DNA of 64,000 nucleotides from Cyanidioschyzon merolae. Lineage: Eukaryota. A program made the position numbers and the translations under genes. Positions 1 through 26,300 of the stretch are shown here, piece after piece. The DNA lies in the NCBI GenBank assembly GCA_000091205.1, contig AP006495.2; one strand, given 5' to 3'. The stretch's first letter is position 1. Every line of letters starts with the position of its first letter. Under the pieces are notes generated by a model. That model saw only the letters and a list, made by a program, of their open reading frames with translations, did not search any database and was not told the origin of the DNA.

Positions 1-3
1 ACC

Positions 4-959: not shown

Positions 960-1800
960 GGCCGGAATGAGGACGTTTCACGCCTCCTTCGAACTAGTTT
1001 TCGTGAAGCAAAGGATATCAATCGTCAGTCCATATGGATAAGCCTCCGGTCTTCTCCGTTCCTTATGTGCAGGATGTTCAAATCGCGCGTGCTTCAATTT
1101 TATGGATCTCTCGCTAAGGAACGTTATAGGCGATGTGGGATTGAAGGGGAATCCAAAAGCGGGGCGTCATTCCAGGATGCGTTCTTCGCCAGCTCAAGCC
1201 GAAAAGTCCCTGAGTTTCTCACCCAAATATTCGATTGCGTTCGAAAGACAAACCCTCCTGTGGCTGTGACCAGTGACACAACTGCATTCGACAGCACCGG
1301 CATGCTGCATTTCGGGTGACACGCTCCCAAACGCTTCCGTATCTTCTGTTTGCATCGAAAAGGCTCTTGTCTTCGGAATTGAGTCATCGCATCCACTGGG
1401 TCCAGCGGAGAGCGTCTTCATCGCTTTGCACAATGGGAACGGTGACGGGCAGACACTTGTGCTTATGATCTCCAGCCTGGATTTTGTTTTTGGTATTCGA
1501 TTTATGATGGAATTCATCACGTTCCATAAATCCTCGGTCAGCGGGAATAGCCTGCAACCGCCCGTGCACCAGACAGAATACTCCCGGAGGACATCACTCA
1601 GAAGAAGCCCCAGATCGTTGGATGCAGCACTGAGCGTTGAAAACGAGAACAGTATCCAATGGAGCCTTCTGGATCCGAAGGGGTATGAACAGAGCGACGC
1701 AGCGAGCCTGGACGCGCGACACAGCAGCGCTCGGAGCACGGGCAGGTCTGACACATGCATTCGGGAGGGCCTGACCACAACCAAGTGCCACAGCTAGAGA
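960..1800 (+). mobile_element. Degenerate Fanzor-family derivative copy (copy E): weak RuvC-III remnant near 980-1040, then the R1 region homologous to the methyltransferase-like ORF of copy B
   Basis: Nucleotide homology of 1140-1560 with 25440-25810 and 18040-18280, for example caaatattcgattgcgttcgaaagacaaaccctcctgtgg versus caaatactcgattccatttgaaagacaatgccttctcacttgg. Upstream, tatcaatcgtcag resembles ccatcaatatccgacg. Alignment was done by eye. Confidence 0.45.
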
Positions 1801-2425
1801 GTTTGCACAGAAGTTGTATACCAAGAGGCTCGAAATGGCAAGCGAACCGTAGATTGCATCTCCCGTCCGTGAACGCAATGCGTCGCAAACAACCAGAAGC
1901 GTCCGAATCGGGATGCTGACGCTACCGCCACCGTGCTTTCACTGCTGACATCGGAGCCGCAAAGAAATGAGAGACGGGCGTATCTAAAATCTGAGATAAG
2001 AGAGAGCAAACGGGCGCTGTTGCAGAAAATCCCCGCACACACAAGTGTTGGCGGCAGTGGAAACAGTCTCGAGCTTTAGAGAGCGCGTCCGAATTATGAG
2101 ACCTATTCCGTTTTAGGTGGATCCAGGTGTAGCGCTTTCGTCGTAAACGCAACGCACGAGTTCCAGTTCCATGCGATGCGCGAGACGCTGCCAGGCAGCG
2201 CGAGTGCTCGTTCTACCGCAGTCACCCGCTGGTACTGCCGATACCTTCGTGCTGTGCTCGCGTTTCGAAACGGGAACATGGCTCGTGTCGTCGCGCTGCT
2301 GCGCCCAAGTGTCAAGTTGTACGTCGCTCACGCTTTCGCTCAGCGTCAATAGATATCACTTGATCCTTTACAAAGCGCACGGCATCCATACTCCGTATCA
2401 TCGTACCGGATCGTTCGCTCGATGC

Positions 2426-4444
2426 TCAGCGATTGTCAGGAGCAATAGACGGTATGAGGGTGCTCGCCGCGATCGGCGGTGTTGCTAGCTTGGTTGCCGC
2501 TGCATCACTTGAACGTTCCTCTTTGCGCAACTGGGCTCGCCAGTGCGGCGTGTAGCGTTTGCCTCTGCCTTGCCAGCGTTCGCAGAGCGACAGATGTCGT
2601 AGATTGGCGGCCTCGCCGCCGTACAGCTCAGCGTGGTTACGGAGAGTCAGGTCCCATTCCCAGTCATGTTCGCGCAGATCCAACCCGGTTGCATCCGGAA
2701 GGAAGATGAACGTCGCCAGGAAACCGATGACGGCAGCAGCGGCAGTAAGGATGAATATCGTTCGAATGTCGACGTAGCCGAAGGTGAGCGTCGAGACCAG
2801 TGCGCCTAGTTTGCCGCAAAAGGCGCTGAGGCCGTGCGCACGAGCTCGCACTTCGCTGGGGTAGAGTTCGGCAGCACCGACGTAGGTCACCACGTTCGGT
2901 CCAACCTGCGAGAAGAAGGAAGCCAGAATGTAAAGTGCGATCAATGCATGACGGTTACTTGTTCGGAAGTGCTCATAGGTCCCAGCGAGTATCGCGAAGA
3001 ATACCGCGATCATCGCGAAGCCAAAGAGCTGCAGTCGGCGTCGTCCGCACCACGGCTGGTCGATGATCGCTGCCGCGAGGTAGTAACCAACCAGGGAGAC
3101 GCCATTGTTCAGCACGATCCACGCATTCTGGATAAGGAGATCAGCATTCTCGTTGATACCGTTGAATATGGGACCCGAGTAGAGACGGTTTCCGTACAGA
3201 ATAACATCATTGAGGAACCAGGTAAAACCGGTCCCGATTAAACGTGACCAGTAGTAGCTGAGTAGCTGGCGATATTCCGAGCGGCTGGAGCGGAGCGTCA
3301 ACACGCGACGGCGTCTCGCCTCCCGTCGTTTCGCCGCTCTCTTGAAGACCTCGTCCTCCTGAACAAAGTAAAACCGATGGATCAAAAGTCCGAACAACCA
3401 AAGCGCGCCGACACCGTACACAAAACGCCAAACAAAACTCAGGGCTCGTTGAGAGTACCCCATTTCGTTATTCGATTGGATGCGGCAATTCGGCGCAGTC
3501 TGCTTGGCAACCGCAATGGCAACTAGGGTTAGCAGCGACCCAAAGAGGATGCCAATGCCTTGCATGCTGAAGACCAGCGTGATGGCAGCGCCTCGCAAGC
3601 GTCTCTGGATCTGATGACGCTCATGAGCGGAGGTTTCCTCGATTTTCTGTTTGTGTTCAGCGGCACGAGAGGCGGATATCGGGTACTCGCCTCCAATACC
3701 GATGCCTAAAAGTCCGAAGAATGAGCTGAGGACAATAAAGATGGTACTGATATCCACAGAATATACAAATGTCATGACAAGGGCGCCTGTAACCATAACC
3801 GCTGCCGTGCAGATACTCCCGATACGACGGCCTAGGGCGTCTGCGACCCAGCCAAAGCCCAGCATCCCAAGCATGATACCACCGAAAACGACACAGGAGT
3901 TTGCAATAAGAATACTTCTGGTGCACGTGTCGCGAGAAGGGTACCCTCCGCCGGGGCCGGTGCAGAAGCCCGGAATATTGTCCTGGCAGGGGGCACTTGT
4001 GCACTGCGGAAAGAGACCCGGACAACGCACTTGGTTGGCGCAGTTGACGCTTCCATGCACTGCTCCGAGCCAGCAAGTTGGATAAGCCGCTTCCCAGACC
4101 GTTTTAAGTTGTCCAGTGGTGATGAGGAAGTACGCTGCAATGAACATACCCGCGCCCGCGCTCATAGAGCGTATCATCGACATCAACACGGTCCAGTAGC
4201 GCGCACGAGGCGCTTGCCGCACCTCCGGGACGTCAACGCCATTCGCAGGCGTTTCTACTTCGCTCTGTGTACGCGAGAGTTGAAGCGAGTTTTCGCTTGC
4301 CTCAAACTGGAGCCCAGCGTCCGCGTCGTCGACCGCAGTTGCACGCTCCTTCGGCGCTTTGGCACGAGGCAGCATCGAAACGAAGCGTCCAGATAGACTG
4401 CAATTGATGGCGTCACGCCTCGGACTGGAGGTCTCGGACAACAC
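2426..4444 (-). CDS. Inorganic phosphate:H+ symporter, PHO84/Pht1-type (MFS, PHS family)
   Basis: 672-aa ORF with about 12 predicted TM segments. It carries the PHS-family signature GIGIGGEYPISASRAAEH (GGDYPLSAT-type) and has a Cys-rich insertion between TM1 and TM2. Confidence 0.75.
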   Translation of the reverse strand: MLSETSSPRRDAINCSLSGRFVSMLPRAKAPKERATAVDDADAGLQFEASENSLQLSRTQSEVETPANGVDVPEVRQAPRARYWTVLMSMIRSMSAGAGMFIAAYFLITTGQLKTVWEAAYPTCWLGAVHGSVNCANQVRCPGLFPQCTSAPCQDNIPGFCTGPGGGYPSRDTCTRSILIANSCVVFGGIMLGMLGFGWVADALGRRIGSICTAAVMVTGALVMTFVYSVDISTIFIVLSSFFGLLGIGIGGEYPISASRAAEHKQKIEETSAHERHQIQRRLRGAAITLVFSMQGIGILFGSLLTLVAIAVAKQTAPNCRIQSNNEMGYSQRALSFVWRFVYGVGALWLFGLLIHRFYFVQEDEVFKRAAKRREARRRRVLTLRSSRSEYRQLLSYYWSRLIGTGFTWFLNDVILYGNRLYSGPIFNGINENADLLIQNAWIVLNNGVSLVGYYLAAAIIDQPWCGRRRLQLFGFAMIAVFFAILAGTYEHFRTSNRHALIALYILASFFSQVGPNVVTYVGAAELYPSEVRARAHGLSAFCGKLGALVSTLTFGYVDIRTIFILTAAAAVIGFLATFIFLPDATGLDLREHDWEWDLTLRNHAELYGGEAANLRHLSLCERWQGRGKRYTPHWRAQLRKEERSSDAAATKLATPPIAASTLIPSIAPDNR

Positions 4445-5479
4445 CGCAAAACGTGCCTAGTAGCGTCGTCTACGCGTACTGGACAGGCGCGCCTCTGTGA
4501 CGTGGAGCCATGGCGTGTCCGGCGTCACGTATCGGTCACTTTGCCGCAGCGGTGTCCGAAAGCGCCCGTTTCTTCTTCATGGTCTAACATCGATGAGCGT
4601 ATTCAGGTTATGAACCATCATCCTCGTCGATAAGCGACCATTGTATTGGAGAATTCTAAAGAGACCTCTATCCATTGAAATAAGCATTTGCGTGTTGTAT
4701 TCTGCAGGGCATGAGCTCCCAAAACTGAATAGAAGGTAGGTTGATCCGGTACCTCTGCTGTTATTAAAGCTCTACGTGGACTCAGGCGGGCACCTACGAC
4801 AATCACCAGGAGCCGGTACTCTCGATAGGGACATTGCGGAGCTGTCCTGAGGCCCTTGTCACAGGGCGTCAGGTTTATGGACGGATTCAGAATCCCCTGT
4901 ACACGAGGTTTTCCCATCGGCAACCTGAAAAGTGACTGACGCGCTGCCACAGGTCTCTTCGATACACGCTTTACCACAGACCAGTCGTACCGGAGGAAAT
5001 AGGAGTTCGATGGGTCCAGCGATGCCCAGGGATCCGAGACTGCCCCAGACACTTGCTGCGACGCTACACTCGTGCGACATTCAAACGAAACGCTGATCTG
5101 CTTCCGCTGTTCCTGCATTTCGATCTTTTCCGAAGTTTTTTCAAGCACAGCCCCGAAAATCGAAGTGCAACAATATGCGGTGACGAATTCATGCGTAGTT
5201 TTTGGATTCCCAGCCGTCGTGTCGGATTGGCACATTCCAGGTTGTGTCGCTGGAGGTCGATGCGTCACCGGAATCCAGAGGAGGATTCTCGACGTCGTCG
5301 TACACGGGGTTCGTAAACAAAGCAACATCATAATCCAGTGCGTCCGTGCAAGCCTCCGCTTTTCTCCCTTCCTTACGTTTGGCGAGCGCTAGTCATGATT
5401 CTTCAGGTTCACGATTTGTCTGTGTCAAGGCAACTCACTCGTGGATGCAGCAACTCAATGGCATCCCTCGATGAATATC

Positions 5480-5870
5480 TCATAAGCTAACGCCAAAAGT
5501 TTACTGAAATTGTCACGTTATGTAAGCGATCTCGCTCGAGCGGCAAAAGAATCCTCCTCTGTCTGTGGCCCTCGACAAAACGGCATTCGACACCAGCAGC
5601 ATGATACCTCGAACGAGATATGCTCCACGAGGCGCCCGTATCCTCTGTTTGCATGAACAAGGATCACGGGCTCGTACTAGAGTCATCGCAACGATCGCTT
5701 CCAGCAGAGATCCTCTTAGCGCTCTGCACGTAAGGGCGCAAAGTTTGAAATTTCACGACTTGTTTTCCTTCCGGCACTCGTTTCCTCGTGGACAACGACG
5801 CTTTCCAAAAATGTTCTACCGAGTCCAACAGGATGCGCTTGCACTCGCAGCGAACAGAATACTCGCCTAG
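5480..5870 (+). mobile_element. Solo R1 fragment (copy F) of the same repeat family
   Basis: 5560-5720 aligns to 1240-1400 and 25500-25650: ...gcattcgaca[cg]cagc..., ccgtatcctctgtttgcatgaacaagg versus ccgtatcttctgtttgcatcgaaaagg. No Fanzor-coding part was recognised. Confidence 0.4.
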
Positions 5871-7142
5871 CGGATCGCCCAGAACAAGCCCGCTTTCGCA
5901 GGAGCGGCACTAAGCGCGGCAGCGGAGGATCGGAACTAGGCGCGCTTCCTGTACCCGTTATGGGTTTGCATTGAGCGATAGAGCAAACGTTGATGCAACA
6001 CAGGGCTGCCCCCGGAGAGCGCTTTGGTGTCCATACGGGAGCACCCGCCAATTATCAAAAGTAATCGCTGCGACCAGTGCTCCATGACTGTTTACAAAAG
6101 ACGATGAAGGTTGCTGGCGATGCGTAGAGATTACAACTGCCGTCTGTGTATAAAGTTCGTCGAGAGATCAGCGTGAAGCGGCAAAATCGCGGCGTTAACG
6201 CTGTGATAACCATCTCTCAACTGCTGACCACGGAGCTGGCGAGACAGGAGCGACCGGCGTATTGAATACCACGGATAAGAGCGTATGAAAGGAAGCAGTC
6301 ACAGAAAAAGCCCGTCAAGACTAGTGCTGATAACAGTGGCAAGCGATACATATTTTAGTCAGTGCGCGCGAATTCGCAAAGCGGACCCCTTCTACTCTGT
6401 CCTGACTTGTATTTGTATAAAGAAGTAGTGAACACGTCGCCCGAGTCAATGGAGACGCGGGAGTCGCGAGCTGCTGTTTCCATAGCGAACGTTGCAAGCG
6501 ATGCGAAAGGCACCACTTCGCGCATAGATATCCAGGTTTGCACTTCGATTCTTCAGAAATGAGCGGTCTCATCCCGTCGTTGCGGAAGTAGTACACTGAT
6601 TCTAGCTTCCTCCAGTAGGCTCCAGGTACGAAGCAGCCTATGCTTTGGGAAAGGTGTTCGACCTTTGGACCCGCAGTCGCTTTTGAAACCTGCTAGCAAA
6701 GCCGCTCACCGCATACGAAGCCGCGTATTCTCTGCGAATAAAAAGTCCGACGTTCAGGCATGAAACCGTTTCGAAACTTTCCAGCGGAGCCTGCATTTCC
6801 AGTAGAACTCAACGAGACGCTAAGACCGGCTACATATATGGCTGGGTACTCGCCCGGTTAGCAGGTACGCTCGCTGAACCTGTGCCCGTTCACGACGCGT
6901 TTCAGTCCCTAGCGCTTGTCGACAGCGGTGCTCGTGAGCAGCAGCTCGTTACAGCGCACATTCAATGAGACATGTAGACTGCTGCAGTCCCGAGCAACGC
7001 CCTTGCCAAGTAACGGGTACCGAGATCCACCGTTTGTACTGCCGCAGCGCCTTGTCGCTGACGTCCAGCTCGCTGGAACCCAACACCGCTTTCAGGGCGA
7101 GCGCGGCGACGCCCTAGTTCGCGTTCCAGCGAGCCGGTCTCT

Positions 7143-10100
7143 ATGCTAGGTAGCTCCGGTGCAAGTATCCAGCGGACCAGGGAGGTTCAGTCCCCAAAAC
7201 GTCGTGGTGACGTTCGATCTTTTGGTCATGCAAAGGCGGCAGGTGTCAGGTCACCACAGGTGACGGGATTCGTCCCGGAACTATGTCCACGCTGGGGCGC
7301 ATGCCCTGCTAGGCAGACTCGTCGCAGACACACAGCAGCGCACTGTGTCGTGCGTCCAAGCAGCGTCTATCCGCGAGCAGTGTGCTCCTTCGTGAGCAGC
7401 AGCTGGAGGCTCGCACTGAAGCACATCGAGACAGCGTCAACTGGGAGCGTCCAGCGACGCTTGCTCGGCCTACAAGCGTCGTCAGACTCGAAGGACTCGA
7501 CTGGGGCACCAACGGCGCGTTTGGAGCCGGTTTTTCAGACCGCAGAACACGTTGCTGCGCACTATGCGGTGGAGATTGAAGCTGGACTCAGTACGAGCCG
7601 TGCTCGCGAACTCTTGCGCATTCATGGACCGAACGCGCTTCCCGAACCGGAACCACAGACGCTCGTTCAACGAGTGCTCAAACAGTTTGACGATCGTCTG
7701 GTGCAGATCCTTCTGGTCGCTGCCGGCATATCCTTTACGTTGGCAGCAACAGCAAAGGAGCGAACGGCTTCCGCGTTCCTAGAGCCTGTCATTATTCTAA
7801 CGATTCTGCTCTTGAACGCTGGTATCGGGGCGATCCTCGAGTCGCGAGCAGACGAGTCCATCAGGGCCATGCGAGCCTATATGAGCGAGGAGGCTGTGGT
7901 TGTCAGGGATCAGGGCGCTAGGTCGTGTATACCAGCGCGGGAGCTCGTGCCTGGTGACGTCATTGAACTACGAGCCGGTGACCTGGTGCCAGCGGATGCT
8001 CGTGTCGTGCGGTTACTCTCGAATACGCTCCAAGTCGACGAGTCGATTCTCACCGGTGAGTCCCTTGCAGTGGACAAATACGTTGAGGCAATGGAGCAGG
8101 CGAAAGATGCACGAGGCACCGGTCGACTTCCGTACCAAGAGCAGCGCAATATGTTGTTCACAGGCTCCGTGTTGACCAGGGGTCGCTGCCTCGCTATCGT
8201 GGTCGCAACTGGCGAAAATACTGCTGTCGGTACAATCCGTGGCCAACTCGTACGGAGAAGCAGCAGCAGCAGCAGCAGCAGCGCTAGTCGCAAGAATGGT
8301 GAAACGGAGTTAGCCACGGAAGCGACTACCGAAACCCCGCTGGTGGAGCAGATGAATCGCCTGGGAGACCTGCTCACCAACCTTGTGCTGGGTATTTGTG
8401 CAGCGGTATTCGCGCTCAATCTTGTACAGGAAATCCAACAAGTACCCCTTGCCATGATCATTTCACAACAACAGGTCGATTTAAGTCGTATTCTCGAGCA
8501 GGTCATCGAATCCTTCAAATTCTCGGTGGCTCTGGCTGTAGCTGCAGTTCCCGAGGGTCTGCCTGCTGTAATCACCACCTGCCTAGCCCTCGGAACGCAG
8601 CGCATGTCGAAGCGCAACGTACTTATCCGCTCCCTGCCCTGCATTGAGACACTCGGCTGCACATCTGTGATTTGTTCGGATAAGACCGGGACACTGACCC
8701 AGAATCGCATGCGCGTCGTGGAACTCGTACCGGTACATGATTCGCTCAAGGAGGCGCTCTCGCTGGTGCTTGCACTCTGTTCAGAGGCCACCCTGGATGG
8801 ACGAGGTGATCCGACGGAGCTCGCATTGCTGCGAGCCGGCGAAGAGCTGCGACCCTCCGACAGTAACCGAGCATTCTGGGAGTCGCATGCACGAATCCTG
8901 CAGGTCAATGAGTTCGATCGTGTTCGGAAACGCATGAGCGTCGTCGTTACCTGCAGCGTGCCGGTTTTGTCGACGGCGAATACGAACGATCACAAAAGCA
9001 CCTACACGTATTCACTAGTCAAGGGCGCACCAGAGACTGTTCTGGAACAGTGCTCCTTCGTTGAGCCAGACGCTGTAGCATACTGGTCAGAGCAGACGAG
9101 GGAACGCTCACGTAGCGGTCTTCGCTGTATTGCACTGGCTATCCGAGAATGCACCAGCGACGCTGCACAGGACAGTGCCGAGAAACAGCTCACGTTCCTG
9201 GGACTCGCTGCCCTGCAGGATCCTCCGCGTCCAGGAGTCCGTGAAGCGATCGCTCGCTGTCGACAAGCAGGTATTCGGGTAGTGATGATCACGGGGGATC
9301 ACGCCTTGACGGCATCTGCAATTGCCGCTCAAGTCGGTATCCTCGATACCTCCATGATCGCAGATGCCGCAGCGGAGAAGAGCGGTACCTTGACGCCTAC
9401 AGTGGTGCTCGGTGCGGACCTCGAGAGCAACCGTTACACCCCAGACCAAGTGGCAGCAGCGCGAGTGTTTGCACGCGTCGAACCGAAGCACAAGCTACAG
9501 ATCGTCGAGACGCTGCAGCGGACCCGCAGCGAAGTCGTCGCCATGACCGGGGACGGTGTCAACGATGCACCGGCGTTGGCTGCTGCGGACGTCGGCGTCG
9601 CCATGGGAACCGGAACCCAGGTTGCAAAGGCCGCTGCCGACATGGTCATTGTCGACGATAATTTCGCTACGATCGTCTCAGCTGTGGAAGAGGGCCGCTC
9701 CATCTACGCCAATATGCGGCAGTTCATCCGCTATCTCCTCAGCAGCAATATTGGTGAGGTGATTGCCGTCCTGGTGAGCTCGCTTTGGCTGCACGTTCCG
9801 GAGATTCTGTCACCGGCGCAGTTGCTCTGGGTGAACCTCATTACCGACGGTTTACCTGCCATCGCGTTGAGTTTCAACCCGACGGATCCGGAGGCCATGC
9901 AACGGCCGCCTCGTCGGCGCGATGAACCCTTCCTACGTACCCAGGGTGGACTCGGTGGTGACCTTGCCCGTTATCTGGCGATTGGTACATACGTTGGTCT
10001 CGCTTGCGTCTTCGGATACCGTGGATTCATAGACAACACCGTCCAAGCGCGCTCCGTGGCCATGTCAGTGCTTGTCACTGCCGAGATGGCCAATGCCTTG

Positions 10101-10370: not shown

Positions 10371-10886
10371 ATCGTGACTACCGGAAAAGGGAGCGCAGGC
10401 TTGGGCACTTGCGAAGAGCATTTTGCTAGAAACCGGCAAGTGCTGGCCTTGTCCTGGATGTATGTGCTGCATCACTGCATGACACCTGAAATGACGCGCT
10501 CGCCTCTGTCTAGCACGCCTGGAGACGAAGAATTCTATATCCTTTCTCTTTCTGCTGCTTGCGGATGAGGCATTGCTCATTGCAAATAAGTAGTTGCGCA
10601 TTGCTTGCTCCTTACATAAATGTTAAAGCGATCGATGGCTGTGTCCATGCCCGCTCTGACTGGGTTCATGTGAGGCGCTTTTACCTTTTGCCGAAGCGCG
10701 TTCCATGGTTATGCTCACCTCATGGAGAACATGTCCGACGTACATGTTGGTACCACAGTGCTCGAGCCTTTCGTAACGCTTCTTGAACGGCCACGATTGG
10801 GGTACTGCTATTCCAAGCTCGAGAGTGAATGTTTGTAATGCCTCGTCGTCAACGTCGTTTCGGCAAGTCCGTCGTGCACACACCGT

Positions 10887-10901
10887 CACACACACACACA
10901 C
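10887..10901. repeat. (CA)7 microsatellite
   Basis: cacacacacacaca lies in the convergent intergenic region between the ATPase and the GT49 gene. Confidence 0.8.
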
Positions 10902-13019: not shown

Positions 13020-14000
13020 AATATTAAGGTCTATTAGATCCCATTTGTAGAGGATGTGATGGGTGCCGCACCCCGCACAGGTCCAGCGGCCGCGTTTTCG
13101 TTGGATACGCTCGCGTGCGCTCGGCCACCGGGGAAGCAACGAAAGCGCGCTCTATGTTCCTTCATGTCAATGGTACTCCATATCCTGGTGCGTCTCATCA
13201 TATGCTTTTTTGCGGTTTATAGAAGATTTGTTCGAAATGCATTCATTTGAAGAAACAGAGAGAATCCAAGGAAAATTATAGACTGAAATTCGGGGATCCA
13301 GAAGGGCCCTCATCACCGCGTTATACCAGCGAACGAAAAATCCCCTAGTCGCCGACCATCGAGCGAAGAGGAACAAGTGACGAAGAAGCGGAAGCAAAAG
13401 GGAGATAGTCGCCAAAACGGTGATCTCTCGACCGGACGATGACCAGACTCTAGAGGCACATAGGGAACGAGAACCAGGAATCCATGCAAAGGTGACTTCA
13501 ACAGGAGCGAAGAAACGCAAAGAGTTCGTGAGCCGCGACGGAAACGCTGCTATCAATAGCAGACGATTTGCGGCGCTGAACGCGAGAGCCGACGAGCTGA
13601 TGCGATCCAAAATTGCGAGGCAGCGTCTCAGGATCCATGTGTGCCTGGATAACACTGACCCCGATACCAGGATGCGGGTGGAAACACACTGGGAGGCGTC
13701 TGCGCGCGGGTACTCATTTTGCCTCCATTGTCATAGAACGTTTATCGTTTTCCTGACCATATATGGGCAATCACGAATGGGCAAACCGCTGTTCTCGAAG
13801 AAGCGACAGGTGAGCAAGACCGCTGCATTAGCCAGTACGGCTATTTGCACGGGTGATCGCCTACAAATCGCCAAACATACCGGAGCGCTTCGCATCGCAG
13901 GCAACGTAAAAGCAATGTGTGGCTTCTGTTTGCGACATTCTTCTATTCTGCTCTATGACGACGTCGATTTCCATCACGAATGAGCTGTCAAGGAGTACGT
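13020..14000 (+). mobile_element. Internally deleted Fanzor-family element (copy A): 5' segment, then Fanzor 3' end, then partial R1
   Basis: The 5' segment 13020-13420 aligns to 17260-17665 (copy B) and to the minus strand of 49200-49500 upstream of the full copy, for example tgcttttttgcggtttatagaagatttgttcgaaatgc versus gttttttcgcactttataagagaggcgttcaaagtgc. The R1 part is at about 13760-13990. Confidence 0.6.
13420..13760 (+). pseudogene. Fanzor/TnpB-like C-terminal fragment carrying the RuvC-III motif (VSRDGNAAINSRR); no in-frame stop
   Basis: Translation DDDQTLEAHRER...KEFVSRDGNAAINSRRFAALNARADEL aligns to copy B, copy C and the full copy. The 3' block gggtactcattttgcctccattgtcatagaacgtttatcgttttcctgaccatata is conserved. 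Confidence 0.6.
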
Positions 14001-15916
14001 GACAAAAACTGCTCTCGAGCTGCTCCTGGTGAGACCCTTTTTTTCCGATTCAAGCCAGTCGAAGGCGACATCTCTGTTGCCAAACACCGTTTTTGAAGCT
14101 CACGGATCCATCGACGAGTCGTCCGCATCCATGACACTGTCATCCGACGAATTGCTCTTCGGAAAGTCATTCTCTTCCTGAACCATTCCTGAGCTGGTGT
14201 CTCTCAGCTATGCTTGTTTGCGGGAGGGAGCGAAAATGCGCGCCTCGGTCCGTGAACATCGCCCTTGGGAGCCGCTAAAGAGATTGATGCTCAGGAATCG
14301 TGGAGATATATGTAGGAGAAACAGAGTTCTGGAACAAGTTCCACTCAGTGCGTCGAAGGAGATGCTTTAAACGCTCCAGACAGCACATGAGACTCTGTTC
14401 GATTCGCTTGCAGTTTCGGTTGTATGGAGGCAAGAGTCAGGCATTCGCCAACTTGTGCGATAACTTGCAAAAAAGCAAATGGTCGATATCTCGAGTTGTC
14501 ATGCTGTAGTCAATGGCACTGGACGTGCAGTAACGCGCGAGCGCTGCACTCCGATTCCTTTGACGACAGCGTACATGGAGTGCAGGAATCGGCGCTTTCA
14601 GATTTCCTTCCATGAGTTCAGGACGACACCATTGCATCACGGGCGCGGGTGCATGTTGAATCAGGTACAGATGGAGAGCGTGAAACGGATCCGAATGCAC
14701 GAGATGGTGCTCACTAAGCTGAGCGGACGCCAGCTGACGGGGCGATCCCAGGTCCAAGGCTTGCTGTGAGGTGACGCTACCAGCAAACCTGCACACAAGC
14801 ACGTTCTACACCGAGACCCAAAACGCCTCGACCATCATCCGGGGATATCTTTTGCGTCCGAAGCATCCAGCGGCCATATGTCGAGCAAGCCTTCGAGGGT
14901 ATCGTTTGGTGATCAGTGTGGGCATTTTGCTGAAACGCGGAAGGCATGCGATGAAGAAAATCAGTAACCAGGAGAGAGGGGAATGGATTCTTTCGGGAGC
15001 GAGGCACTGGTATTGGACGGTCAGCGATCGAGCACGATTGATCACTATATACATCCGCAACGATTTTCCTTGGCAACTAGTGAACATTAGCAATGTTCAA
15101 TTACTCGATATCACCGTGCATATGCTCGACGCGAACGGCCGTACGATCGCCCCAGACTGCACTGTTACCGTACGACGTTCGTGGTAGCGTCTCCCGCGCT
15201 TTCGCAAGCGATCAGATTTCGCGAGACACCTACCGGGAAGCCTGATCCAGCCTCTACATCATGCCTGGATTCTGGACTGGGGATGGAGGAACGAGGACGC
15301 ATCACCATGTGCGGGGCGCTCCATACTCAACAAACTGGAAGCTTTTGCGCATCCGTCGGAATCTGGTCCGATGCACTGATCCAGTACACACTAAAATAAA
15401 GCAGTGACGATGGAGGGCGGTGCCTTTGACACCGTAAAGCTCGCTTGACAGCGACCGCATGGACAAGAGGGTGAAGTGCGCGGTTCCGCGGCGCGCTCGC
15501 CACGGGAAATGGCGCCCCAAGTGAAAAAGCGGTCAGAACACGTGCTCATACAAGGTCGAATGCGTTGGTTGCTCCCTCGGTTACCGACCAAAACCGCTTA
15601 CCACGATGGCACTTTGCATATCGATGATGTTTATCCAACGTTAGTGACAATGACGCAGTGCAGCGAATCATCTAGAGAATATATCTCTGGTTCCAGTGCA
15701 GACACGCCATCATGAATGCATTCAGTGATGCCCGTCACAATGCGCTTCGCTGGGAACACGCTATCCCCATTCGATGAAGCGCGGTACGGCAGGCCACGTA
15801 GACCTTGAAAACCCTTGCATTTGCTTGGCGCTGCAACACGAATCCGTTCAGGCATCGGAAAAGTGAACCGCTGCAATTCGGCATAGCATGCAGACCTTGA
15901 ACGCTGTCACGAGACG

Positions 15917-17026: not shown

Positions 17027-17589
17027 TGTACGTTTTCGCTTCAACTAGGCAAAGAAGCGCTTTTTCTTGTCCCCAGCGCCACCTGCTCTGCGCTCGGGAG
17101 CTTCTGGAGACTATGAATGAAAAGCACGCACAGCACGCTCCTCGGCTCGCAGCGGTTTACCTGAATATTTGGCGTAGCTGTAGTGTGAGCACGTTTTACA
17201 CGCAAAAAAACCTCAGGAAAAGCGAACGTGATAAGTTGTCACGTTACATGGAAATCCGTGTTTCCGTTGATAGACTGCTTTGGGTAGCTTTATGTCATGG
17301 GGATCTGTTTGTGATGCGGCGACGACGACGACGACGACGCGCGCGGCATCTCGTACGGATACACGCTTGCAGTATTTCATCTCAATTGGGTTCCATCATC
17401 ACGCACGTGTCGTCAAATGCTATTTCGCGGTTTATTGCAGAGACATTCAAAGCGCGTTCCGTGGAAGGAATAAAACATCCCAGGGGAATGCACGGACCAA
17501 GTCGGGGACCCCGAAGGATCGTCCTCGCCAGGTGCCAGAAAAAACGAAAAATATCCTCTTGTCATCGAGTTTAGAGCGAAGAAGAGCAA

Positions 17590-17982
17590 GTGACAAAGAA
17601 GAAAAAGATGATGATTCGTGTTGGTAGGCGATTCAACGTGTACGCACGACGGAACGATGACGAGACTATGGTGGCACAGAGGGAACGAGTGCTAGGAATC
17701 CTTACAAGGATGACTTCAAGCATCCTCAATGCACGCAGTGAGCTCGTGAACCGCGACTTGAACACTGCTATCAATACCAGACGATTTTCGGTGCTGAACA
17801 CGAAACCCCAAGAGCTGACGCGAGCCAACTTCGTGGAGCAGCCTCTGATACTCAAAATGTGTAAGGAGAAGCTGGAGCCGATAGCAGGCGGCCGGTCAAA
17901 AAATGGTTGGGTGACGTCTGCGGGTGGGTATTCATATACCCTACATGATCGTGCGAAAACTTTTGTTTCAGTGACCACATAG
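17590..17982 (+). CDS. In-frame internally deleted Fanzor/TnpB-like ORF (130 aa): about 35 N-terminal residues fused to the C-terminal RuvC-III segment
   Basis: MMIRVGRRFNV resembles MVAKAFVLRQF, the N-terminus of the 49166 ORF upstream of the full copy. ERVLGIL...VNRDLNTAINTRRFSVLNTKPQELTRANFVEQPL aligns to aa about 570-630 of the full copy. The stop TAG is at 17980-17982. Confidence 0.5.
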   Translation: MTKKKKMMIRVGRRFNVYARRNDDETMVAQRERVLGILTRMTSSILNARSELVNRDLNTAINTRRFSVLNTKPQELTRANFVEQPLILKMCKEKLEPIAGGRSKNGWVTSAGGYSYTLHDRAKTFVSVTT

Positions 17983-18028
17983 TGCATGTGAATAAATCTG
18001 TTCTGATGTATAGCTCTTCGGGATCCGC

Positions 18029-18952
18029 TTGTCGCGCTTGCTCGAGCGAGATTTCGCGCTTGCGAACGACACCAATGCTACCTGCCTGGCCGTGCTCGGT
18101 TTCATGAGCTCAACGAAAGACCAGAACAGCGTGGGTGAGTTAGAAGACTTGGCCTTATGGGCAGTGGAAGCTCTTACGGTGGCGCTTGTCCCTCCTGACG
18201 ACACGCTATGCTGTCTCGATTCGCGAGCGTTCGGGCTCCTCGGTACGCCTGGAGAAACTGGTTTTCAACACGCGAGCATCATCGAGCAGTTCCGAGACGA
18301 CCTCTCCCGAAATAATAGACCGCACTTGGTCACGAGTGATGCCGGCGTTGAAAACCTCGCTGAACGCAGAGTCGATGGCTGTGTCACTTTCGGCGCCTTA
18401 GACAGCGCTTTCGCCGACGAGGCCTCCTGCGAGTCCGTGCTACGAACAGTCGCCCGCCTGCTGTGCTCAGGTGGAAAGTTCTTTGGTCTCTGTGTGGACA
18501 GCGCAAGCCTATGGACACCACTGCGGAAAGCTTACGAGGCACGACAGACTGGGCGGGCTGCTCCTGCACCCAGCGTCGATATTCGGCTACCGTACCGGGC
18601 AAGCGACGCGAGCTTCTGTATCGCCATGGATCCGGATGCGAATGCACTCTTTCGCTCCGCATACGGACACGTGTTTACGCTGGGCGTGGGCACAAGAACA
18701 AAAGCCTCGTCTCGAAAGTGCTATCTTGTGAACTTTGGAGAACTGATTCGAGTCGCATCACGCGTAGGTCTCGAGTACCGCGAGGCCTTGAACTTGAAGG
18801 ATTTTTGGGAAGAATTTCATCGCCCATTACAGTATTGTGAGGAGATGCGTAGCTTTTACCGACGCTTCCAAGGTCAAAAATTTCGACCAAGTCCAGCGGC
18901 GCTCGAGGGCGCTGCGTATTTCTCCGTATTTGTCTTTGAAGCAGTGTCCTGA
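18029..18952 (+). CDS. Element-borne class I methyltransferase-like protein resembling the C-terminal two-thirds of mRNA cap guanine-N7 methyltransferase (RNMT/Pox_MCEL family); the SAM-binding motif I was not recognised
   Basis: 307-aa intact ORF. The block [39 protein letters not shown] resembles the RNMT block [71 protein letters not shown] resembles [32 protein letters not shown], and [11 protein letters not shown] resembles SIYLVFAFEK. Degenerate paralogous copies of this ORF follow every Fanzor 3' fragment (copies A, C and E). Confidence 0.45.
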   Translation: [307 protein letters not shown]

Positions 18953-20676
18953 GCACATGCATTCCAACCTTTTAACAAATATCGTTTCTGACTAAACGCC
19001 CAATACTGAAAGCTGTAAGCATAAAGGGCCTCTGCCGTCAGAAATCATTGCTCTACCGAATGCATTAGCAGTTCGCTGCCAAGAAGCAACGATGCAGCAA
19101 ACCGACTCTAGAGCGCATCGGCGAGATGGAATCGCGCGGGCAGCGGCATCCGTTGCTCTGACTCTCCCATGTCGCATGTAGTGTTCCTTCTGCTGCTCTC
19201 AGAGCGGCAACAAGTGCTCTTCCATAAACGTGCCCTCATGGTCCACAAGCATGCGTTGACTTGCATCCAGGGTGCATTCAAGGCTTCTCTGAGAGCAGCG
19301 TTCGCACGAGCGATCGCGCGTCCCAGATACCGCTCCAAGCATGTACGAATCTGACTGCAGCTCAGTACTTCAACGTTTCGACCCGGAACGCTAAGGCTTC
19401 GACAACGCATCCACGTCCATCATTAGAGCTCCAGCAACATACTCGATCCGTTATGTACCAGATATGTGCGTCAGTGTTCATCTGGTCTACTGGTATCGCG
19501 GCTCAAAATCAGAGTCGCAAAACACCGCACACTTGCACGCTGCACGCACGCTACTTGCTCAATCCAAGCTCTACTTTATTCGCTGAGCCAGGATTTATGA
19601 GAGCAGCGAAACAGAAAATCGGGTCTTTGAAGGCATTGTTTCTCCAGTGATCACAAGGTCCAACAGCTTGTTCAAAACAGGGGCGGCGCTGGGCTCCAGG
19701 CCCAACGACGGTGCGCCGTCAACGCAACGCGGCCGTTCTGTGAGACGTCGTCGGGACGCCTTTGCGAGCTGCTTTCGAGGTGCAACGAACATCGCGCAAC
19801 GCTTAATTGCTACGCAGACTAGAGCTCGTGCGCAGCTGTTCCAGGTGCGCCTGTGAGCGTCGTGTCAGTACCTGCCACGGCAGCTGGTGCTCTGCCCAGC
19901 GTCATGCGAACAGCGCCAACGCGGCAGCAGAGCACTTGAGTACCCCGAAGACGGGTGCCAGCTGGTCTAACTTGGCGCACTACGCAATTGACACTGCAAG
20001 TTATCGATAAATCTTCAAGTGCAGGAAAGGCACCTGAGCGCTGGAGTCCATAGGTACCGAGCTTCCGAGAAACGACAACCAGTTGACGATAAGAGTCAAG
20101 TCAAAGCATTCAGCGCTCTGTACGCGTCTTTCCTCGCAGGCAACTGCAGTTTACAAACAGCTTCGATCCCCGCGCGTACGTCTCTACCAAAGGTTGCGCT
20201 ATGGTCTCCCAAGTCACTACGACTGCCTCGCAGACGAACGCTTGCTCTCGGGGGACCTGGTGCGGCTCCTCGCGCACCGCTTCCTATCTCGCAGTGCCAC
20301 GGGTCCCAGCGCTTAGTGACGCACCCAGTTCATAAAAAGTCGAAGCAGAGAAAAATTCGTCTCTCCGATCGAAAAGACATCAGCCGGGCTATATTTGGAA
20401 CGTGCAGCGGCTCCCGGTTTGCCACCCAGGGAAGCACACTCCCAGTCTACAGCTCTGAGCATGGCAAGTCGAAGTCCGCGGCCGAGGCACGCAATAGGTC
20501 TCGCGCCGTCCATCAGTCCTTTTTGTGTAATAATAAAACTAAATAATCTATTTGATACCGTTTCCCTTGTGACAACGACCACGAGAGGCAAAACCTGGAC
20601 CTCCGCATCAGCCGAGACCATCCACCGTCACCACTGAAGGCCACCTATTGGTGTTCCCAAACGTCGGGAACACTTC

Positions 20677-22035
20677 ATGGAAGCCGAACAAGACTCGAGA
20701 CTGAAGGATGCGCTTGGCAACCTCCACAGAGCAGGGAAAATAGCTCACGTTGATCCCGAAGTCCTCAAGGTGCTCTCGAGTCCAAAGGAAAGCCTCATTA
20801 CCGCAGTGCCGGTGCGTATGGACTCGGGGAAGCTCGAAGTATTTCGCGGGTACCGCGTCCGTTGGAACGATGCACGAGGTCCGACTAAGGGAGGCATTCG
20901 TTTCCATCCGTCCGTTTGTCTCGATGAAGTGAGCGCGCTGGCCTTTTGGATGACCTTTAAGTGTGCGGTTGCAGATATCCCGTTTGGTGGTGCCAAAGGC
21001 GGCGTGGCCTGTAACCCCCGTCAGCTCTCTCCGAGCGAACTGGAGCGCCTCAGCCGCTCATATGGGCGTAGTATTAGTCTGGTAATTGGCCCCGATCGGG
21101 ATATCCCTGCACCGGATGTCTACACGAACACACGCATCATGGGATGGATCATGGAAGAGTACGAACATACGCATGGCGGAATCCGACAGCCAGCCGTGAT
21201 AACCGGCAAGGCGGTTGCCCAGGGTGGGTCTCCAGGACGCGACGATGCCACCGCTCGTGGTGCCTACTACCTCATCAAGGAGATGGAAACGAGCACACAT
21301 CGTGAGCTGCTCTCAGGCGCTAACGGGCCGATAACGGTAGCGATCCACGGTTTCGGGAACGCTGGCCAGCACATCGCTCGCTTGCTAGCCCACGATCGCA
21401 AGTACCGCGTGGTCGCAGTGTGCGATAGTCGGACGGGCGTCTTCTGTCGTGAGGGCGTCGACGTCGATCGTTGTGTTGAGGTGAAAGCCGAGACCGGTGC
21501 ACTGGACGCCGAGCGCGTTGGACACGGAGCCACTAGCCTGGAACCCACGGCATTGCTGCTGCTTTCTGTGGACCTCCTGGTACCGGCGGCAATAGAGAAC
21601 GTGATTCATTCAGAAAATGTTGGCCAGATTAAAGCGCGGTTGATCGTTGAACTTGCCAATGGTCCGGTGTCTCCGGAGGCGGACAGAGCTCTCGCCTCGC
21701 GGAACGTGGACGTGATCCCGGATATCCTTGCGAACTCGGGCGGTGTGATTGTTTCCTACTATGAGTGGGTCCAGAGCCGCACCGGCCAATGGTGGAGCGC
21801 TGAACAGGTCCACGAGCGTTTACAGGCCAAAATGGTCCATGCGTACCGGGCTTTGTTCGAACTGCTTCAAAGGATTCGCGCATCGCCGACGGGGACTGCA
21901 TCGGCGGAGACTGACGGGGCACTGGGCGCGCTCACGTTCCGCGATGCGGCCTACGTACTCAGTCTACAACGCATTGCGGCTGCGATTCAGGCAACAGGGG
22001 GTAGTGCCTTTTTCGAAAAACGCAGCCATATGTGA
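20677..22035 (+). CDS. Glutamate dehydrogenase (Glu/Leu/Phe/Val dehydrogenase family, GdhA-type)
   Basis: 452-aa ORF with ATG at 20677. Contains GPTKGGIRFHP, the active-site region IPFGGAKGGV, and a Rossmann motif GFGNAGQHIARLLA. Confidence 0.85.
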   Translation: MEAEQDSRLKDALGNLHRAGKIAHVDPEVLKVLSSPKESLITAVPVRMDSGKLEVFRGYRVRWNDARGPTKGGIRFHPSVCLDEVSALAFWMTFKCAVADIPFGGAKGGVACNPRQLSPSELERLSRSYGRSISLVIGPDRDIPAPDVYTNTRIMGWIMEEYEHTHGGIRQPAVITGKAVAQGGSPGRDDATARGAYYLIKEMETSTHRELLSGANGPITVAIHGFGNAGQHIARLLAHDRKYRVVAVCDSRTGVFCREGVDVDRCVEVKAETGALDAERVGHGATSLEPTALLLLSVDLLVPAAIENVIHSENVGQIKARLIVELANGPVSPEADRALASRNVDVIPDILANSGGVIVSYYEWVQSRTGQWWSAEQVHERLQAKMVHAYRALFELLQRIRASPTGTASAETDGALGALTFRDAAYVLSLQRIAAAIQATGGSAFFEKRSHM

Positions 22036-22876
22036 GCGTCGTTCAGAGGATCCGTTGGACAGGTTCCTACGGGACCTCTGCGAGTCGTAAATCCGTAGCT
22101 ATGGTATCGATTTGCAGCTTCGCAGATATCGAGATTTGGGTGCCCTGTCATCGGTTGCGCAGCAACGCTCCGCCCATGACGAGAGCGCCACCGACGAGGA
22201 CCAGTGTGGACGTTGGAAAGTCTCTGCGGACGATGGCGGCGCATGTCGTTGTCCAGCAGCGTACTCTGCGGCGATGCGCACCGCACACTCCGTAAACGAT
22301 CCGCTCGCGCAGATGAACACATCATCTCGCCTGGATGCAATTTGCGAATATCGAGGACTATCCGTGGACATCAAAACCCACCTCAGCTCACTGGCGTACA
22401 ACATCAAGGGTTTACGCAAGCCGTACCATGAATCAAATCCACGCAGAGGCGACGGCACCAGCGCGCGCCCCTGTTTCAACACGATGTCTGACGCAGCGTC
22501 GCCAATGAGTCGATGCAACAGCCTCCATCCAGCGTCAACAGCCAACAGGCATGGAAGATGATCCATGATGGACAGAGGATGCGAAGCAGGTGCAGTCGCC
22601 CGGTTCGTGCCGAGCAGTCTTTAGGGGTATTGCAGCGGTTGCGCCAGCATCGCTCACAAAAAACGAAAGTCAGGGTGCAGCTGATGGCGGCACAGGTTAC
22701 GGCTGGTTTGGCGGCGCGAACTTATTGTATCCCGCTGCATAGATCAGAAGCGCATCAAAGCTTGCTCCTCATCAGGCAAAGCGCGCGCCATCTCGTATTC
22801 GACCAAGTCGACTTGTGCAGAGAGCGAGTACAGCGGCGGGTCGCCGACTGGCCACCCGCCGCTCCTGTTCAGGCGC

Positions 22877-23146
22877 TCACTTGGCTCCCGCTTCTGAAGT
22901 TGTCGCTACTGCTTGCTCCGCTTGCCCCTCCTCCTCAGGTTGCACGCCGATTTGTTCCATTAGGTCAGTGATGCTCTTTTCCAGTTCATCAATGCGGCTC
23001 GACATGTCTTCGATTCGCGATAAGATCGTGGAACTCATGCTCTCAAACCGTGACTGCATCTGTTCCAAGAGCTTTTGGACGTACTCAGTGAGATCCTCAA
23101 CCGGCTCCTGCAACTCTGACGTATTTGTCTTGTTTTCTGTTGCCAT
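22877..23146 (-). CDS. HSBP1: Heat shock factor-binding protein 1 (HSBP1-like)
   Basis: 90 aa from the ATG at 23146. DLTEYVQKLLEQMQSRFESMSSTILSRIEDMSSRIDELEKSITDLMEQ closely matches the HSBP1 coiled coil ([46 protein letters not shown]). Confidence 0.75.
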   Translation of the reverse strand: MATENKTNTSELQEPVEDLTEYVQKLLEQMQSRFESMSSTILSRIEDMSSRIDELEKSITDLMEQIGVQPEEEGQAEQAVATTSEAGAK

Positions 23147-24849
23147 CGTGTCTGAAAGGTGCCTATAAAAAACGTTCTCGCGCGCGAGCAAGGCGACGAA
23201 CGCTCAGCGCAAGGTCGTCGTCGACAAGTGCGTGCAGGCGTACGCGCGCCGGCTCGCGCTTCGATCGCTGGCGGGTTCCAGAGGGCGCGTATACCGCTGG
23301 TGCCTGCCCGGCGCCTTGGCTGGCTGGATCGCCCCAGGTCGACTGCCTCCCAGCCGCTCTTGCTATCTTGTCATTGGTGCAGGGTCGATGACGCGTACGA
23401 GACCCGCCGGATTACGCTGGCGTAGCCGATGATGCGTACACGAACTGCGCCAAGAGCCGTTTGATGCTCGTGCGTACCACGACGCCTCGAGGGGTGTCGC
23501 TTTGAAAAAGGCACGCTCAATAGGTCAAGCGGGTGTCTGGATGCCGAACTAAACACGTCAAGCTCCGCGGTGGATCCGGTGGCACGCTCAGTGCAAGGCG
23601 CGGTTGCCACACGCAGGCCAGGATACCAAGCAACTGTGAACAGTTCGCGCGCTTCCCAGCTTGAGATATTTTTTGGAACACTTTCTTCGATGTGCAGTCT
23701 CGATATCCAAAGTGGAACAGTAGGGGCTAACGAATGCCTCAATTGTTTTAGGAGCCTCGACCGTCCTTTCGAAGTTGCCTTGCTGCTAGAGCTTGTTGCG
23801 TCACCGAAATGAAAATGATTCGCAATGCCTCCGAACAAGGATTCGTAAACGAACCGATAGCTTTCTTTCATTCATCCGGACACGCCTCCACTATTCTCCT
23901 TTTCTGACGTGTGAGATGGTAAAATCATGCATTGTTCAAATGTTCGATCTTTATTTTTCAACTCAACTCGATCCTATCCACACTGACTGCAGTCGCATGC
24001 TTTCTCGCACTGTATAGCAGCAGATCAAGATCAAGATGCCATGTACCATACAGACGGTAGAAGAATTGCCTATAGGATCCATTCTTTACTGGACAGTGCA
24101 AGGGGATTGCATTTCTATCTCAGGTCAGTCATGTAACAGTACTCAAATTGTTGAAAGACTCGGCAAGAAAGAATAAGATGCGGTCAACGCCAAAACCGAT
24201 ACGCTTACGGACCGCTCGCGGTCCATGGTAGGAAAACGACCCGTTGATTACCTTACGGAAAGCAAAAATCAACGATAGTGTACACCACCACTGGCGTCTC
24301 TGCTTCCCAATAGCTTGTTCGTGTGGTCCTGAGAACACCTGGAAACACTTGTAAAACAGTCCCAGGTCATGCACGGCCATTCGCCACAGAATTCGCAACT
24401 GCAGAAGAGTTCCCGGAGCTTTGCGATCGGTATGAAGCAAATGGACAACGCTTTATTCTTTCAGTCGGTTCGATCTGCTTCGGACGAACCAGTCGGAGCT
24501 TGTATGGGTATTCGCATCGAGGCAGATCGTTGTATGTACGATCGAACTGGAAGCGAACGATGGCGCCATCTGTTCTAGTTTTAATGGGTTCATTGAGCGA
24601 CCTCTGTCTTGCTCGTGGAGCAGAAACATCCAACAGCACCAACCGCCTTGTCGAATAATAGAAGACTCTTCGCTGACGTACGGCGACTTTATTGGTCAAC
24701 GTGGCATTTGACAATCCGCCTTGCGTTCGAGCTTTTGGGAATTCTATCGGAATAGAGCTGATTTTCATTCCTCCGTACGCTCTTTAATTCAACCGCAACG
24801 AAAGAGTGCTTTCTACTGTGAAACGTAATCATCGGTCCACCGGGCGAGT

Positions 24850-26300
24850 CGCCGAAGCATCCAGCACACTGTGACACACCCGGGCACATTTCGTGGTCCT
24901 TCCGCAGGTCCTTCACCTTTGGGGAAGGTCCTCACCTAAACGCATAAAATAGTGCATTCATTTTCAGGAAATAAAAAATCGATGGTATGAGTTTGGATGC
25001 ACACTTCAGAACAAAGAGATGGAGAAGAGCCAGCGGAGCGCTTCGGTGATAGAAAAGCACCGAGAGCTGACACAGAACCAAATGACACAGAGTGAACGAG
25101 TTCTAGGAATCCTTGCATTGGTGGGTTCACGCAGCGACGATAAACGCATGGAGTTCGTGATACGAGACCTCAACGCTGCCATCAATATCCGACGATATGC
25201 AGAGCTGAAGACGAAACCCGCAGAGCTGTAACGATCCAACTTTATGAGGCGACCTATTAGGATCGAAGTTTGCAACGAGAAACTGAAACCGACAACAAGC
25301 AGCTGATCGAAAACGACTGGGTGGCGTCTGCACGTGGATACGCATCTACCCTACATAATCGTGCGACAATTTTTGTTCCACTGACCACATACCATGTCTG
25401 AATAACTTTTTGGCGTCCTCCTGTGACGACTCGTCGGCAAGCTCACGCAGAAATTTCACTGAACTTGTCAAGTCAAATACTCGATTCCATTTGAAAGACA
25501 ATGCCTTCTCACTTGGTTGCTATCGATGGAACCACGGTCGACTTCAGTTCGACAAATCCCGGGAGATACGCACGCAGTGGCTGTCTTCTCTTGTATTTGC
25601 GTGGAAAAGGTCTGGGGCGCGGACTCTAGTCACAGCGGTGATCTCTTCGGGTGCAGCGTGCGTCACGACTTCGCATGGGCGGAGCGTAGACGAATCGAAT
25701 TTTCTCGACTTGATCTCCAGCATGGATTACCATACCGGCGCTCGTTTCATCATGGACAAGCTTGCGTTCCACAAATCCTCTTTCGAATGGGACAGCGTGT
25801 GCTTGGTCGTCCTACGGATATTGAGTTCGCCACGGGCATCGCCCTAAACAAGTCCATGATCGTTGGGTCCGGCAACTGGCTGGCGCGGAAACCTTCCAGG
25901 ACGTCGCGGGGAGCCTTCTGGATCCGTCACGGGCCTGTGCCGGGCGATGCAGCGAGCGGTCACGCACCGCAGGGCGCCAATCTGAGGACGACAAATGGAG
26001 AATACACTCGAATGCCTGACTACCGACGAGTGGCACTGCTACGAAAGGCGCATCCGGGCTCTATACAAACAAGCGAAAAACGGCTGGCGAGGCGTCGATC
26101 GCAGCATTCGCCTGTGCATGGAAAACATGAAAAACATTCGAAAACAGCGTGATCAGGAGTTTAGCGCTGCCACGAACATCTTGCGACTGCTGAAAAAAGA
26201 GCTGGAAGCACAGGAGAGACTGGGGCATTTAAAACCTGAAAAAAGATACCCTCAAAGGGAACAGTTGGAAAAAGTCTGCAAAGGCTGGCATTGATAAAAC
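24850..26300 (+). mobile_element. Internally deleted Fanzor-family element (copy C): 5' segment, then frameshifted Fanzor 3' fragment, then degenerate R1/methyltransferase-like region
   Basis: 24985-25391 aligns at nucleotide and protein level to aa about 536-650 of the full copy. 25393-25810 aligns to 1140-1560 and 18000-18300. Confidence 0.55.
24985..25391 (+). pseudogene. Fanzor/TnpB-like C-terminal fragment (RuvC-III: IRDLNAAINIRR), frameshifted
   Basis: GCTLQNKEMEKSQRSASVIEKHRELTQNQMTQSERVLGIL...MEFVIRDLNAAINIRRYAELKTKPAEL aligns to the full copy's [40 protein letters not shown]...[16 protein letters not shown]. The downstream frame is shifted (RSNFMRRPIRIEVCNEKLKP). Confidence 0.6.

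Follow-up and report, generated by a model that had tools for sequence, protein, structure and literature searches.

Deletion derivatives of a Fanzor1 element and copies of an unrelated R1 repeat between host genes of Cyanidioschyzon merolae

The stretch of DNA analysed here (hereafter, the window) comprises 64,000 nucleotides of the red alga Cyanidioschyzon merolae (assembly GCA_000091205.1, contig AP006495.2) and carries, between positions 960 and 26300, five plus-strand repeats interleaved with host genes, which we call E, F, A, B and C in order of position. A first reading made from the sequence alone (the sequence-only reading) had taken all five for internally deleted derivatives of one element, that of the RNA-guided nuclease Fanzor, of which a full copy lies farther along the window on the minus strand. 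Using sensitive self-comparison and profile searches, with about 1.1 Mb of related JGI metagenome contigs (the L-numbered loci below) as the comparison sample beside the window, we found that the five copies fall into two unrelated families. The interpretation that we propose, and in which we have considerable confidence, is that A and B belong to one amplified deletion family of the Fanzor element, that C is a sister derivative nested in a copy of a second repeat, R1, that E and F are plain copies of R1, and that the Fanzor derivatives of the window are now relics.

The presence of real repeats at all five loci, on the plus strand, was confirmed by self-BLASTN and by profile searches (E 1e-10 to 1e-250). 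The two strings that the sequence-only reading had quoted were located at 13203-13226 (+) and 49326-49349 (-), with 0 chance matches each.

Copies A (13153-13765, +) and B (17368-17995, +) are mini-Fanzor elements ("minis") of about 610 bp without an open reading frame (ORF), and they have the same architecture and the same junction. When they were searched with the profile of the full Fanzor element (nhmmer), A was matched at profile positions 771-1015 and 2990-3228, and B at 771-1057 and 3033-3227. Each begins with about 290 bp that take in the leader and the first ~30 codons and are homologous to 49225-49400 on the minus strand; a further stretch of about 330 bp holds the final 85-95 codons together with the tail. 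The RuvC-III motif is retained, as VSRDGNAAINSRR in A and as VNRDLNTAINTRR in B, and by tblastn B matches Fanzor residues 564-644 with 45% identity. The mini profile covers A at positions 3-608 (E=4e-160) and B at positions 2-606 (E=5.5e-167), and A is 78% identical to the mini consensus. The junction, which brings profile positions ~1000-1058 next to ~2965-2990, is shared with at least seven other non-redundant loci (L022, L031, L037, L043, L057, L059 and L067), where the 5' start and the 3' stop recur too and the flanks are unrelated and do not align. From the recurrence of one junction at seven unrelated loci it follows that the deletion occurred once and that its product then spread; A and B are genuine internal-deletion derivatives of a Fanzor element, amplified as such.

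Concerning their parent, the mini consensus aligns with positions 774-955 and 2945-3228 of the full consensus, and several observations weigh against the interpretation proposed here. The mini 5' end corresponds to the internal full-consensus position ~774, not to a terminus of the parent, and the mini 3' end falls ~40 nt short of the end of the full family, so that the terminal hairpin is missing. Moreover, the minis of the window fold no better than shuffled sequences (z=-0.47 for the 3' part of A and z=-0.79 for B; -0.2 to -0.8 over the window minis), and pairing in a family-specific closing helix, sought across the minis, gave no signal. Since the minis lack the termini of the full family, their parent was not the full family as sampled. 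Identity of the minis is 70-73% to the full consensus and 78% to their own, and because the derivatives stand farther from the full family than the families do from their own consensus, an older sister lineage, and not the full copy present in this window, was probably their source. Stop codons interrupt the former frame in 12 of the 17 rows of the mini family alignment. With ~22% divergence from the consensus, stops in most members and no fold, the minis of the window are best read as inert relics between host genes.

Copy C (23953-25411, +) is a "long mini" of about 1.45 kb, matched by the full-element profile at positions 2873-3228 (E=4e-42). It consists, in this order, of a 5' module of 0.9 kb, a short piece of the mini 5' segment (24872-24997), a stretch corresponding to Fanzor residues 535-656 (24986-25348) that contains two stop codons, and the same tail as in A and B; the mini profile matches it at positions 3-125 and 296-606. 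Profile searches show that it was joined at another point than A and B. The 0.9-kb module precedes minis also in L043, L057, L059, L069 and L077, with 66-69% identity, and a 5' terminal motif, TTTCAWCT.ARTT..GTTCCA, is common to minis and long minis. C is a longer sister derivative with a junction of its own; as its arrangement of module plus mini recurs at five loci, the deletion happened once for each type before the product spread.

In the sequence-only reading A, B and C had each been assembled from a 5' segment, the last ~100 codons of Fanzor and a downstream R1 region. The first two parts are found in all three copies, joined in C at another point, and at the seven loci that share the A/B junction; the third part does not belong to the element. 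There is no R1 beside A or B, and R1 flanks C on both sides. One R1 copy is split there into a 5' part (23630-23970, +; R1 profile 2-350, E=5e-82) and a 3' part (25407-26377, +; profile 391-1364, E=2e-252), the profile being broken by C between positions 350 and 391. C is thus inserted inside an R1 copy, and the 3' part of that copy had been recorded as the "downstream R1" because C is nested within it. No target-site duplication was seen at the C/R1 junction, where R1 is indel-prone and the junction is placed to ~40 bp.

The recurrences just described also bear on the possibility that A, B and C were each broken off at random from decaying full copies, independently of one another, and were never mobile when short. 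All three are old and degenerate, the junction of C is unique with respect to that of A and B, and an unrelated Fanzor fragment lies nearby at 14324-14766, as such a process would have it. Against this, the A/B junction is found together with both ends at the seven other non-redundant loci with unrelated flanks, and the 0.9-kb module and mini of C occur in the same arrangement at five loci; we therefore regard independent fragmentation as highly improbable.

R1, the other family, is a dispersed, non-coding repeat of 1.36 kb with discrete ends, and its copies share 70-74% identity with the consensus. Copies E (773-2134, +; R1 profile 2-1364) and F (5087-6412, +; profile 2-1358) are full-length members of it. 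No match to either was obtained with the full-element profile of Fanzor, even with filters off and E<=1; both are simply members of R1 and do not derive from Fanzor. The view that the repeats are non-autonomous internal-deletion derivatives keeping the C-terminus of the nuclease is thus borne out for A, B and C, is strengthened by the recurring A/B junction, and fails for E and F. Another full-length R1 lies just beyond the 960-26300 range (28649-30004, +), and further copies were found by the R1 profile at 52279-53646 (-) and 61572-62887 (-); the window holds six copies in all, which make up ~12% of its length. The related contigs gave 55 R1 matches, 38 of which span the full profile, 21 of these end to end. 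The idea that R1 is a protein-coding family was rejected, since no long shared ORF exists and conservation in the family alignment has no 3-base periodicity. Its ends, ...GTGTCAGAT and ...CCATTTTAT.CTGACATGG, possibly form an inverted repeat of 7-8 bp, and its 3' end is possibly similar to that of the minis (CGTTTTACTGAC).

The common origin of all five copies from one Fanzor element (5' segment, Fanzor 3' end and R1), following a rule of orientation and spacing, would account for five repeats on the plus strand, for the R1 that follows C and for a short motif of possible significance, TTTTA..CTGAC, that R1 and mini 3' ends have in common. However, this reading is hard to credit at all when E and F match no part of the Fanzor profile at E<=1 with filters off, when 38 of the 55 R1 matches span the full R1 profile and 21 do so end to end, when R1 stands on both sides of C and beside neither A nor B, and when adjacent repeats show no concordance of orientation over 89 pairs.

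This last count covers the non-redundant pairs of adjacent elements in the window and contigs together, of which 48 out of 89 agree in orientation (p=0.53); with the window set aside the figure is 39 of 77, so that the orientation bias looked for at other loci is absent. The common plus strand of the five copies is therefore real in the window and does not extend to a bias. Within the window the plus strand carries every repeat of the first 30 kb and the minus strand most of those in the last 24 kb, and the local plus-strand run is best taken as chance. An orientation bias linked to replication or strand, similar to that of IS200/IS605 elements, was considered and is unsupported by the 89-pair count. 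The alternating intervals of about 4.5 and 7.5 kb noted in the sequence-only reading do not hold as a rule either, since the pattern mixes two unrelated families and follows the lengths of the genes.

The full copy is a near-full-length, damaged Fanzor1 element of CMe-1A type with a length of ~3.3 kb (46879-50176, -; profile positions 2-3304; comparison with five metagenome relatives), including a TE-N2-like 5' module at about 49553-50176. This family has been described twice: as a 3.2-kb interspersed repeat of 253 copies with an ORF resembling WSV486 (Nozaki 2007; PMC1955436), and as CMe-1A, an element of ~3 kb in ~150 copies whose 5' 635 bp are equal to TE-N2_CMe (Bao & Jurka 2013, Mob DNA 4:12; PMC3627910). 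The full copy of the window belongs to this CMe-1A/TE-N2_CMe family, that is, to the 3.2-kb repeat of Nozaki 2007, and the published layout agrees with it. As for CMe-1A, the host is C. merolae and the element, of ~3.3 kb, encodes Fanzor1; the ~600-bp 5' module also occurs alone, as a solo copy at 40279-40882 (-; profile positions 18-622, E=1e-68) and again at 61075-61335 (self-comparison and profile search); and the family is old, shows neither terminal inverted repeats nor target-site duplications clearly, and has some copies that retain open frames. In contrast to the published element, the full copy of the window is damaged, and the accounts of CMe-1A do not mention the mini family (A, B) or the long mini (C).

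Regarding the 5' module, we observed that the core element, at its 5' boundary (profile position ~630), directly adjoins an inverted TE-N2-like module by the module's 5' terminus at L021, L010, L079, L083, L046, L044 and L053/L070, and that the module is direct, not inverted, relative to the core element in the window and at L002/L003. This arrangement suggests repeated insertion beside or into the TE-N2-like module, rather than one fixed composite. A GATA/GATG-type microsatellite (50148-50275) stands in place of the outermost 5' part of the module in the full copy, and likewise at locus L075.

The 3' end of the element could be defined exactly, at position 46879, because a 98%-identical copy at L006 diverges from the window just after …AGAACGGCGTT. 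In that contig, positions 1-3108 match 49979-46879 of the window at 98%, and the sequence 3' of the element end is unrelated to the window; the L006 copy either inserted recently at another place or reflects strains that differ in having the insertion. Since so similar a copy has a different flank, part of the full-element family may have been active recently. The copies in L001-L004 are 78% identical to the full copy of the window across 2.7-3.3 kb.

The Fanzor1 reading frame with its RuvC motifs (46937-48913, -) continues in frame into a neighbouring carboxyltransferase gene because the stop codon of the element has been lost. The resulting ORF of 1287 codons (45050-48913, -), in which Fanzor occupies the first ~656 residues and the carboxyltransferase domain residues 793-1270, is a chance fusion. 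A consensus stop (TAG/TAA/TGA) is present in 24 of 37 non-redundant copies, and the window copy has CAA in its place (46939-46937); the N-terminal ~105 residues of the window copy lie in another frame, with a stop. An upstream TAA, which would leave ~175 nt of non-coding sequence after it, was considered as the stop of the element and rejected, since at that codon CAA prevails among the copies and only 58 nt separate the consensus stop from the element end. Mean column identities at codon positions 1, 2 and 3 are 0.86, 0.89 and 0.74 over the 37 non-redundant copies, which argues that the Fanzor protein was under selection while the family diversified. A 75-bp tandem repeat within the ORF (47851-48080, -) encodes units resembling a 23-residue peptide, and its copy number varies among the copies of the family. 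As for the carboxyltransferase gene, similar to the beta subunit of propionyl- or methylcrotonyl-CoA carboxylase, its first in-frame ATG (46864) is placed 14 nt past the element end in the same orientation, so its upstream region is the transposon. An exact look-up of its protein from the ATG at 46864 found no record, and neither did one of the glutamate dehydrogenase of the window.

More than 340 relatives were found in JGI metagenome contigs. The translation, aligned with 12 homologues, has the split RuvC motifs with the catalytic D, E and D, and the residues next to the motifs depart from the family consensus in the window protein (P to L, NA to IT). Sequence searches offered nothing in favour of the Fanzor assignment: the window protein had no match in Pfam, its homologue P0001 gave in Pfam only Cas12f1-like_TNB at E=0.23, and phmmer and profile searches of the PDB sequences did not recover any Fanzor. 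For this reason the fold was compared, using an AlphaFold model whose low confidence (predicted local distance difference test, pLDDT, 55; template modelling, TM, score about 0.28) likewise counts against the assignment. The best seven Foldseek matches against the PDB (9cez, 9cey, 9ceu, 8gkh, 9cer, 9cf1 and 9cf0) are all Fanzor1 proteins (SpuFz, GtFz and PpFz), with E 5e-8 to 3e-4 and probability 1.00. The protein of the full copy is accordingly predicted to be a Fanzor1 RNA-guided nuclease.

From the observations on A, B and C we infer the following course of events. The ORF-less family of ~610 bp would go back to a related Fanzor element, probably an older one, that lost ~1.9 kb from its interior in one event, and it would then have multiplied through functions supplied in trans. 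The C type would have arisen with another junction, with the 0.9-kb 5' module added, and with insertion into an R1 copy, after which all copies would have decayed to their present inert state. In TnpB and Fanzor elements the 3' end of the gene and the sequence just past it contain the right end, which acts in cis, and the scaffold of the guide RNA; a derivative that was to be moved, or kept by RNA-guided homing with nuclease from another source, would therefore have to retain this 3' stretch. It is known that transcription of the guide RNA of Fanzor and TnpB takes in the 3' end of the gene together with the right end (PMC10530073; PMC10432273), and ORF-less loci with a possible analogy to the minis have been found in Spizellomyces, where "ghost" loci have working guide RNAs (PMC10432273), and in Chlamydomonas, where 20 solo fRNA copies are reported (PMC10530073).

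The last 128 nt of the full copy (46879-47006, -) may contain such a module, which on the evidence of fold and covariation is a candidate omegaRNA/fRNA scaffold followed by a terminal hairpin. The folding free energy is -59.2 kcal/mol, with z=-5.05 for the sense strand versus z=-1.6 for the antisense. When the structure was projected on 48 copies, 79.9% of the cells were paired versus 37-62% in slid controls, and changes on both sides of a pair were 16 versus 9.9+-2.1 in shuffles (2 of 500 shuffles reach 16), counts that are biased by the projection from the minimum free energy fold of one copy. The terminal hairpin is retained in 85% of copies, with stems that vary and include compensating variants. 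Other results make the guide-RNA interpretation less secure. The covariation gives modest support to a structure that itself derives from one of the aligned copies, RNAalifold on the 3' alignment returned only 3 pairs, and a de novo scan for helices by column covariation gave mostly chance helices; besides, the 58-nt tail past the consensus stop is conserved at 0.73, versus 0.74 for third codon positions. At the sequence level, what the minis have kept is the very stretch that folds strongly in full copies.

It could be that the 3' part was retained solely as the right end needed by a transposase, combined with a chance breakpoint, and that guide RNA was irrelevant in the derivatives. Agreeing with this are the tail conservation, no higher than that of third codon positions, the lack of a conserved fold in the minis, and a second ORF-less family that spreads with no more of the element than its last ~95 bp. 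Weighing against it are the minis being without the terminal ~40 nt of the full family, so that this right end was not kept, the retained stretch being the strongly folding region of full copies, and the documented ghost loci with working guide RNAs in other Fanzor hosts. As a complete account we consider it a real possibility, though short of probable; on the narrower question of what the retained 3' part was for, a guide-RNA role and a right end plus chance breakpoint seem to us to have roughly even chances. The second ORF-less family consists of the last ~95 bp of the Fanzor element (CGTCTGCACGTC to the terminal hairpin) joined to unrelated upstream sequence, at L039 (369-463), L073 (4945-5039), L020 (922-1018) and L048 (4283-4367); as it retains nothing else of the element, spreading requires little 3' sequence.

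A stronger version of the guide-RNA reading, which we consider unlikely, is that an active mini was a guide-RNA-only hitch-hiker: it would have made a scaffold RNA with a guide reading into its own flank, Fanzor provided by full copies would cut the vacated sites, and the mini would restore itself there. If this were true, C. merolae, with its tiny genome and its gene-targeting tools, would be a natural system in which to test the role that Fanzor plays for transposons in vivo.

Short Fanzor relatives are known from other hosts, in particular from Spizellomyces punctatus, with 134 ghost copies of Spu-1, each of ~550 nt (Saito et al. 2023, Nature 620:660; PMC10432273). Like these ghost loci and the solo fRNAs (Jiang et al. 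2023, Sci Adv), the minis are ORF-less, of ~0.6 kb and present in many copies, and they retain the region that in the parent would code for the guide RNA, with the nuclease presumably supplied in trans. The ghost loci, however, have 30-nt inverted repeats and well-conserved, working guide RNAs, whereas the minis of C. merolae have no inverted repeats, still show recognisably where the coding sequence began and ended, lack the terminal hairpin of the parent family and, in the window, are too decayed to fold.

The minis can also be set beside classical deletion derivatives, with which they share collinearity with the parent on both sides, a missing middle and amplification. In Ds elements derived from Ac, in deleted P elements and in the prokaryotic ORF-less derivatives of IS200/IS605 (PATEs), the coding middle was deleted once and the product amplified through functions in trans, with both exact termini of the parent retained. 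Exact parent termini are what the minis do not have. While the Fanzor element itself was published in 2007 and 2013, its deletion families in C. merolae appear undescribed in the literature consulted. They add to it an ORF-less derivative family of two architectures that parallels the ghost loci, together with the exact 3' end of the element. The importance of this is modest, as the copies in the window are dead and not directly usable; better-preserved copies elsewhere could serve to test the use of Fanzor in trans.

Apart from these copies, the window contains an older, separate remnant of a Fanzor frame (14324-14766, +), which by tblastn corresponds to residues ~435-577 with 34-41% identity (E about 1e-13) and points to older Fanzor lineages having existed in the genome. 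Around it lies a separate old repeat family (13747-14900), ~60% identical to copies at eight other loci; this flanking repeat recurs in L028, L033, L034, L038, L045/L055, L063 and L066/L068. The genome of C. merolae, though "simple", thus has intergenic stretches in which a number of old repeat families are nested.

The window, a piece of a C. merolae 10D chromosome, has 55% G+C, and its genes are long and intron-free. Rfam and tRNA scans of its 64 kb gave no matches. Host genes encode a major facilitator superfamily (MFS) transporter, a P-type ATPase, a GT49 glycosyltransferase, a glutamate dehydrogenase and a short-chain dehydrogenase, and the first four of these were found between the repeats, in agreement with the earlier statement that every interval holds a host gene. 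The glutamate dehydrogenase (20677-22035) is identical at 452 of 452 residues to glutamate dehydrogenase 2 of C. merolae 10D (XP_005537023.1).

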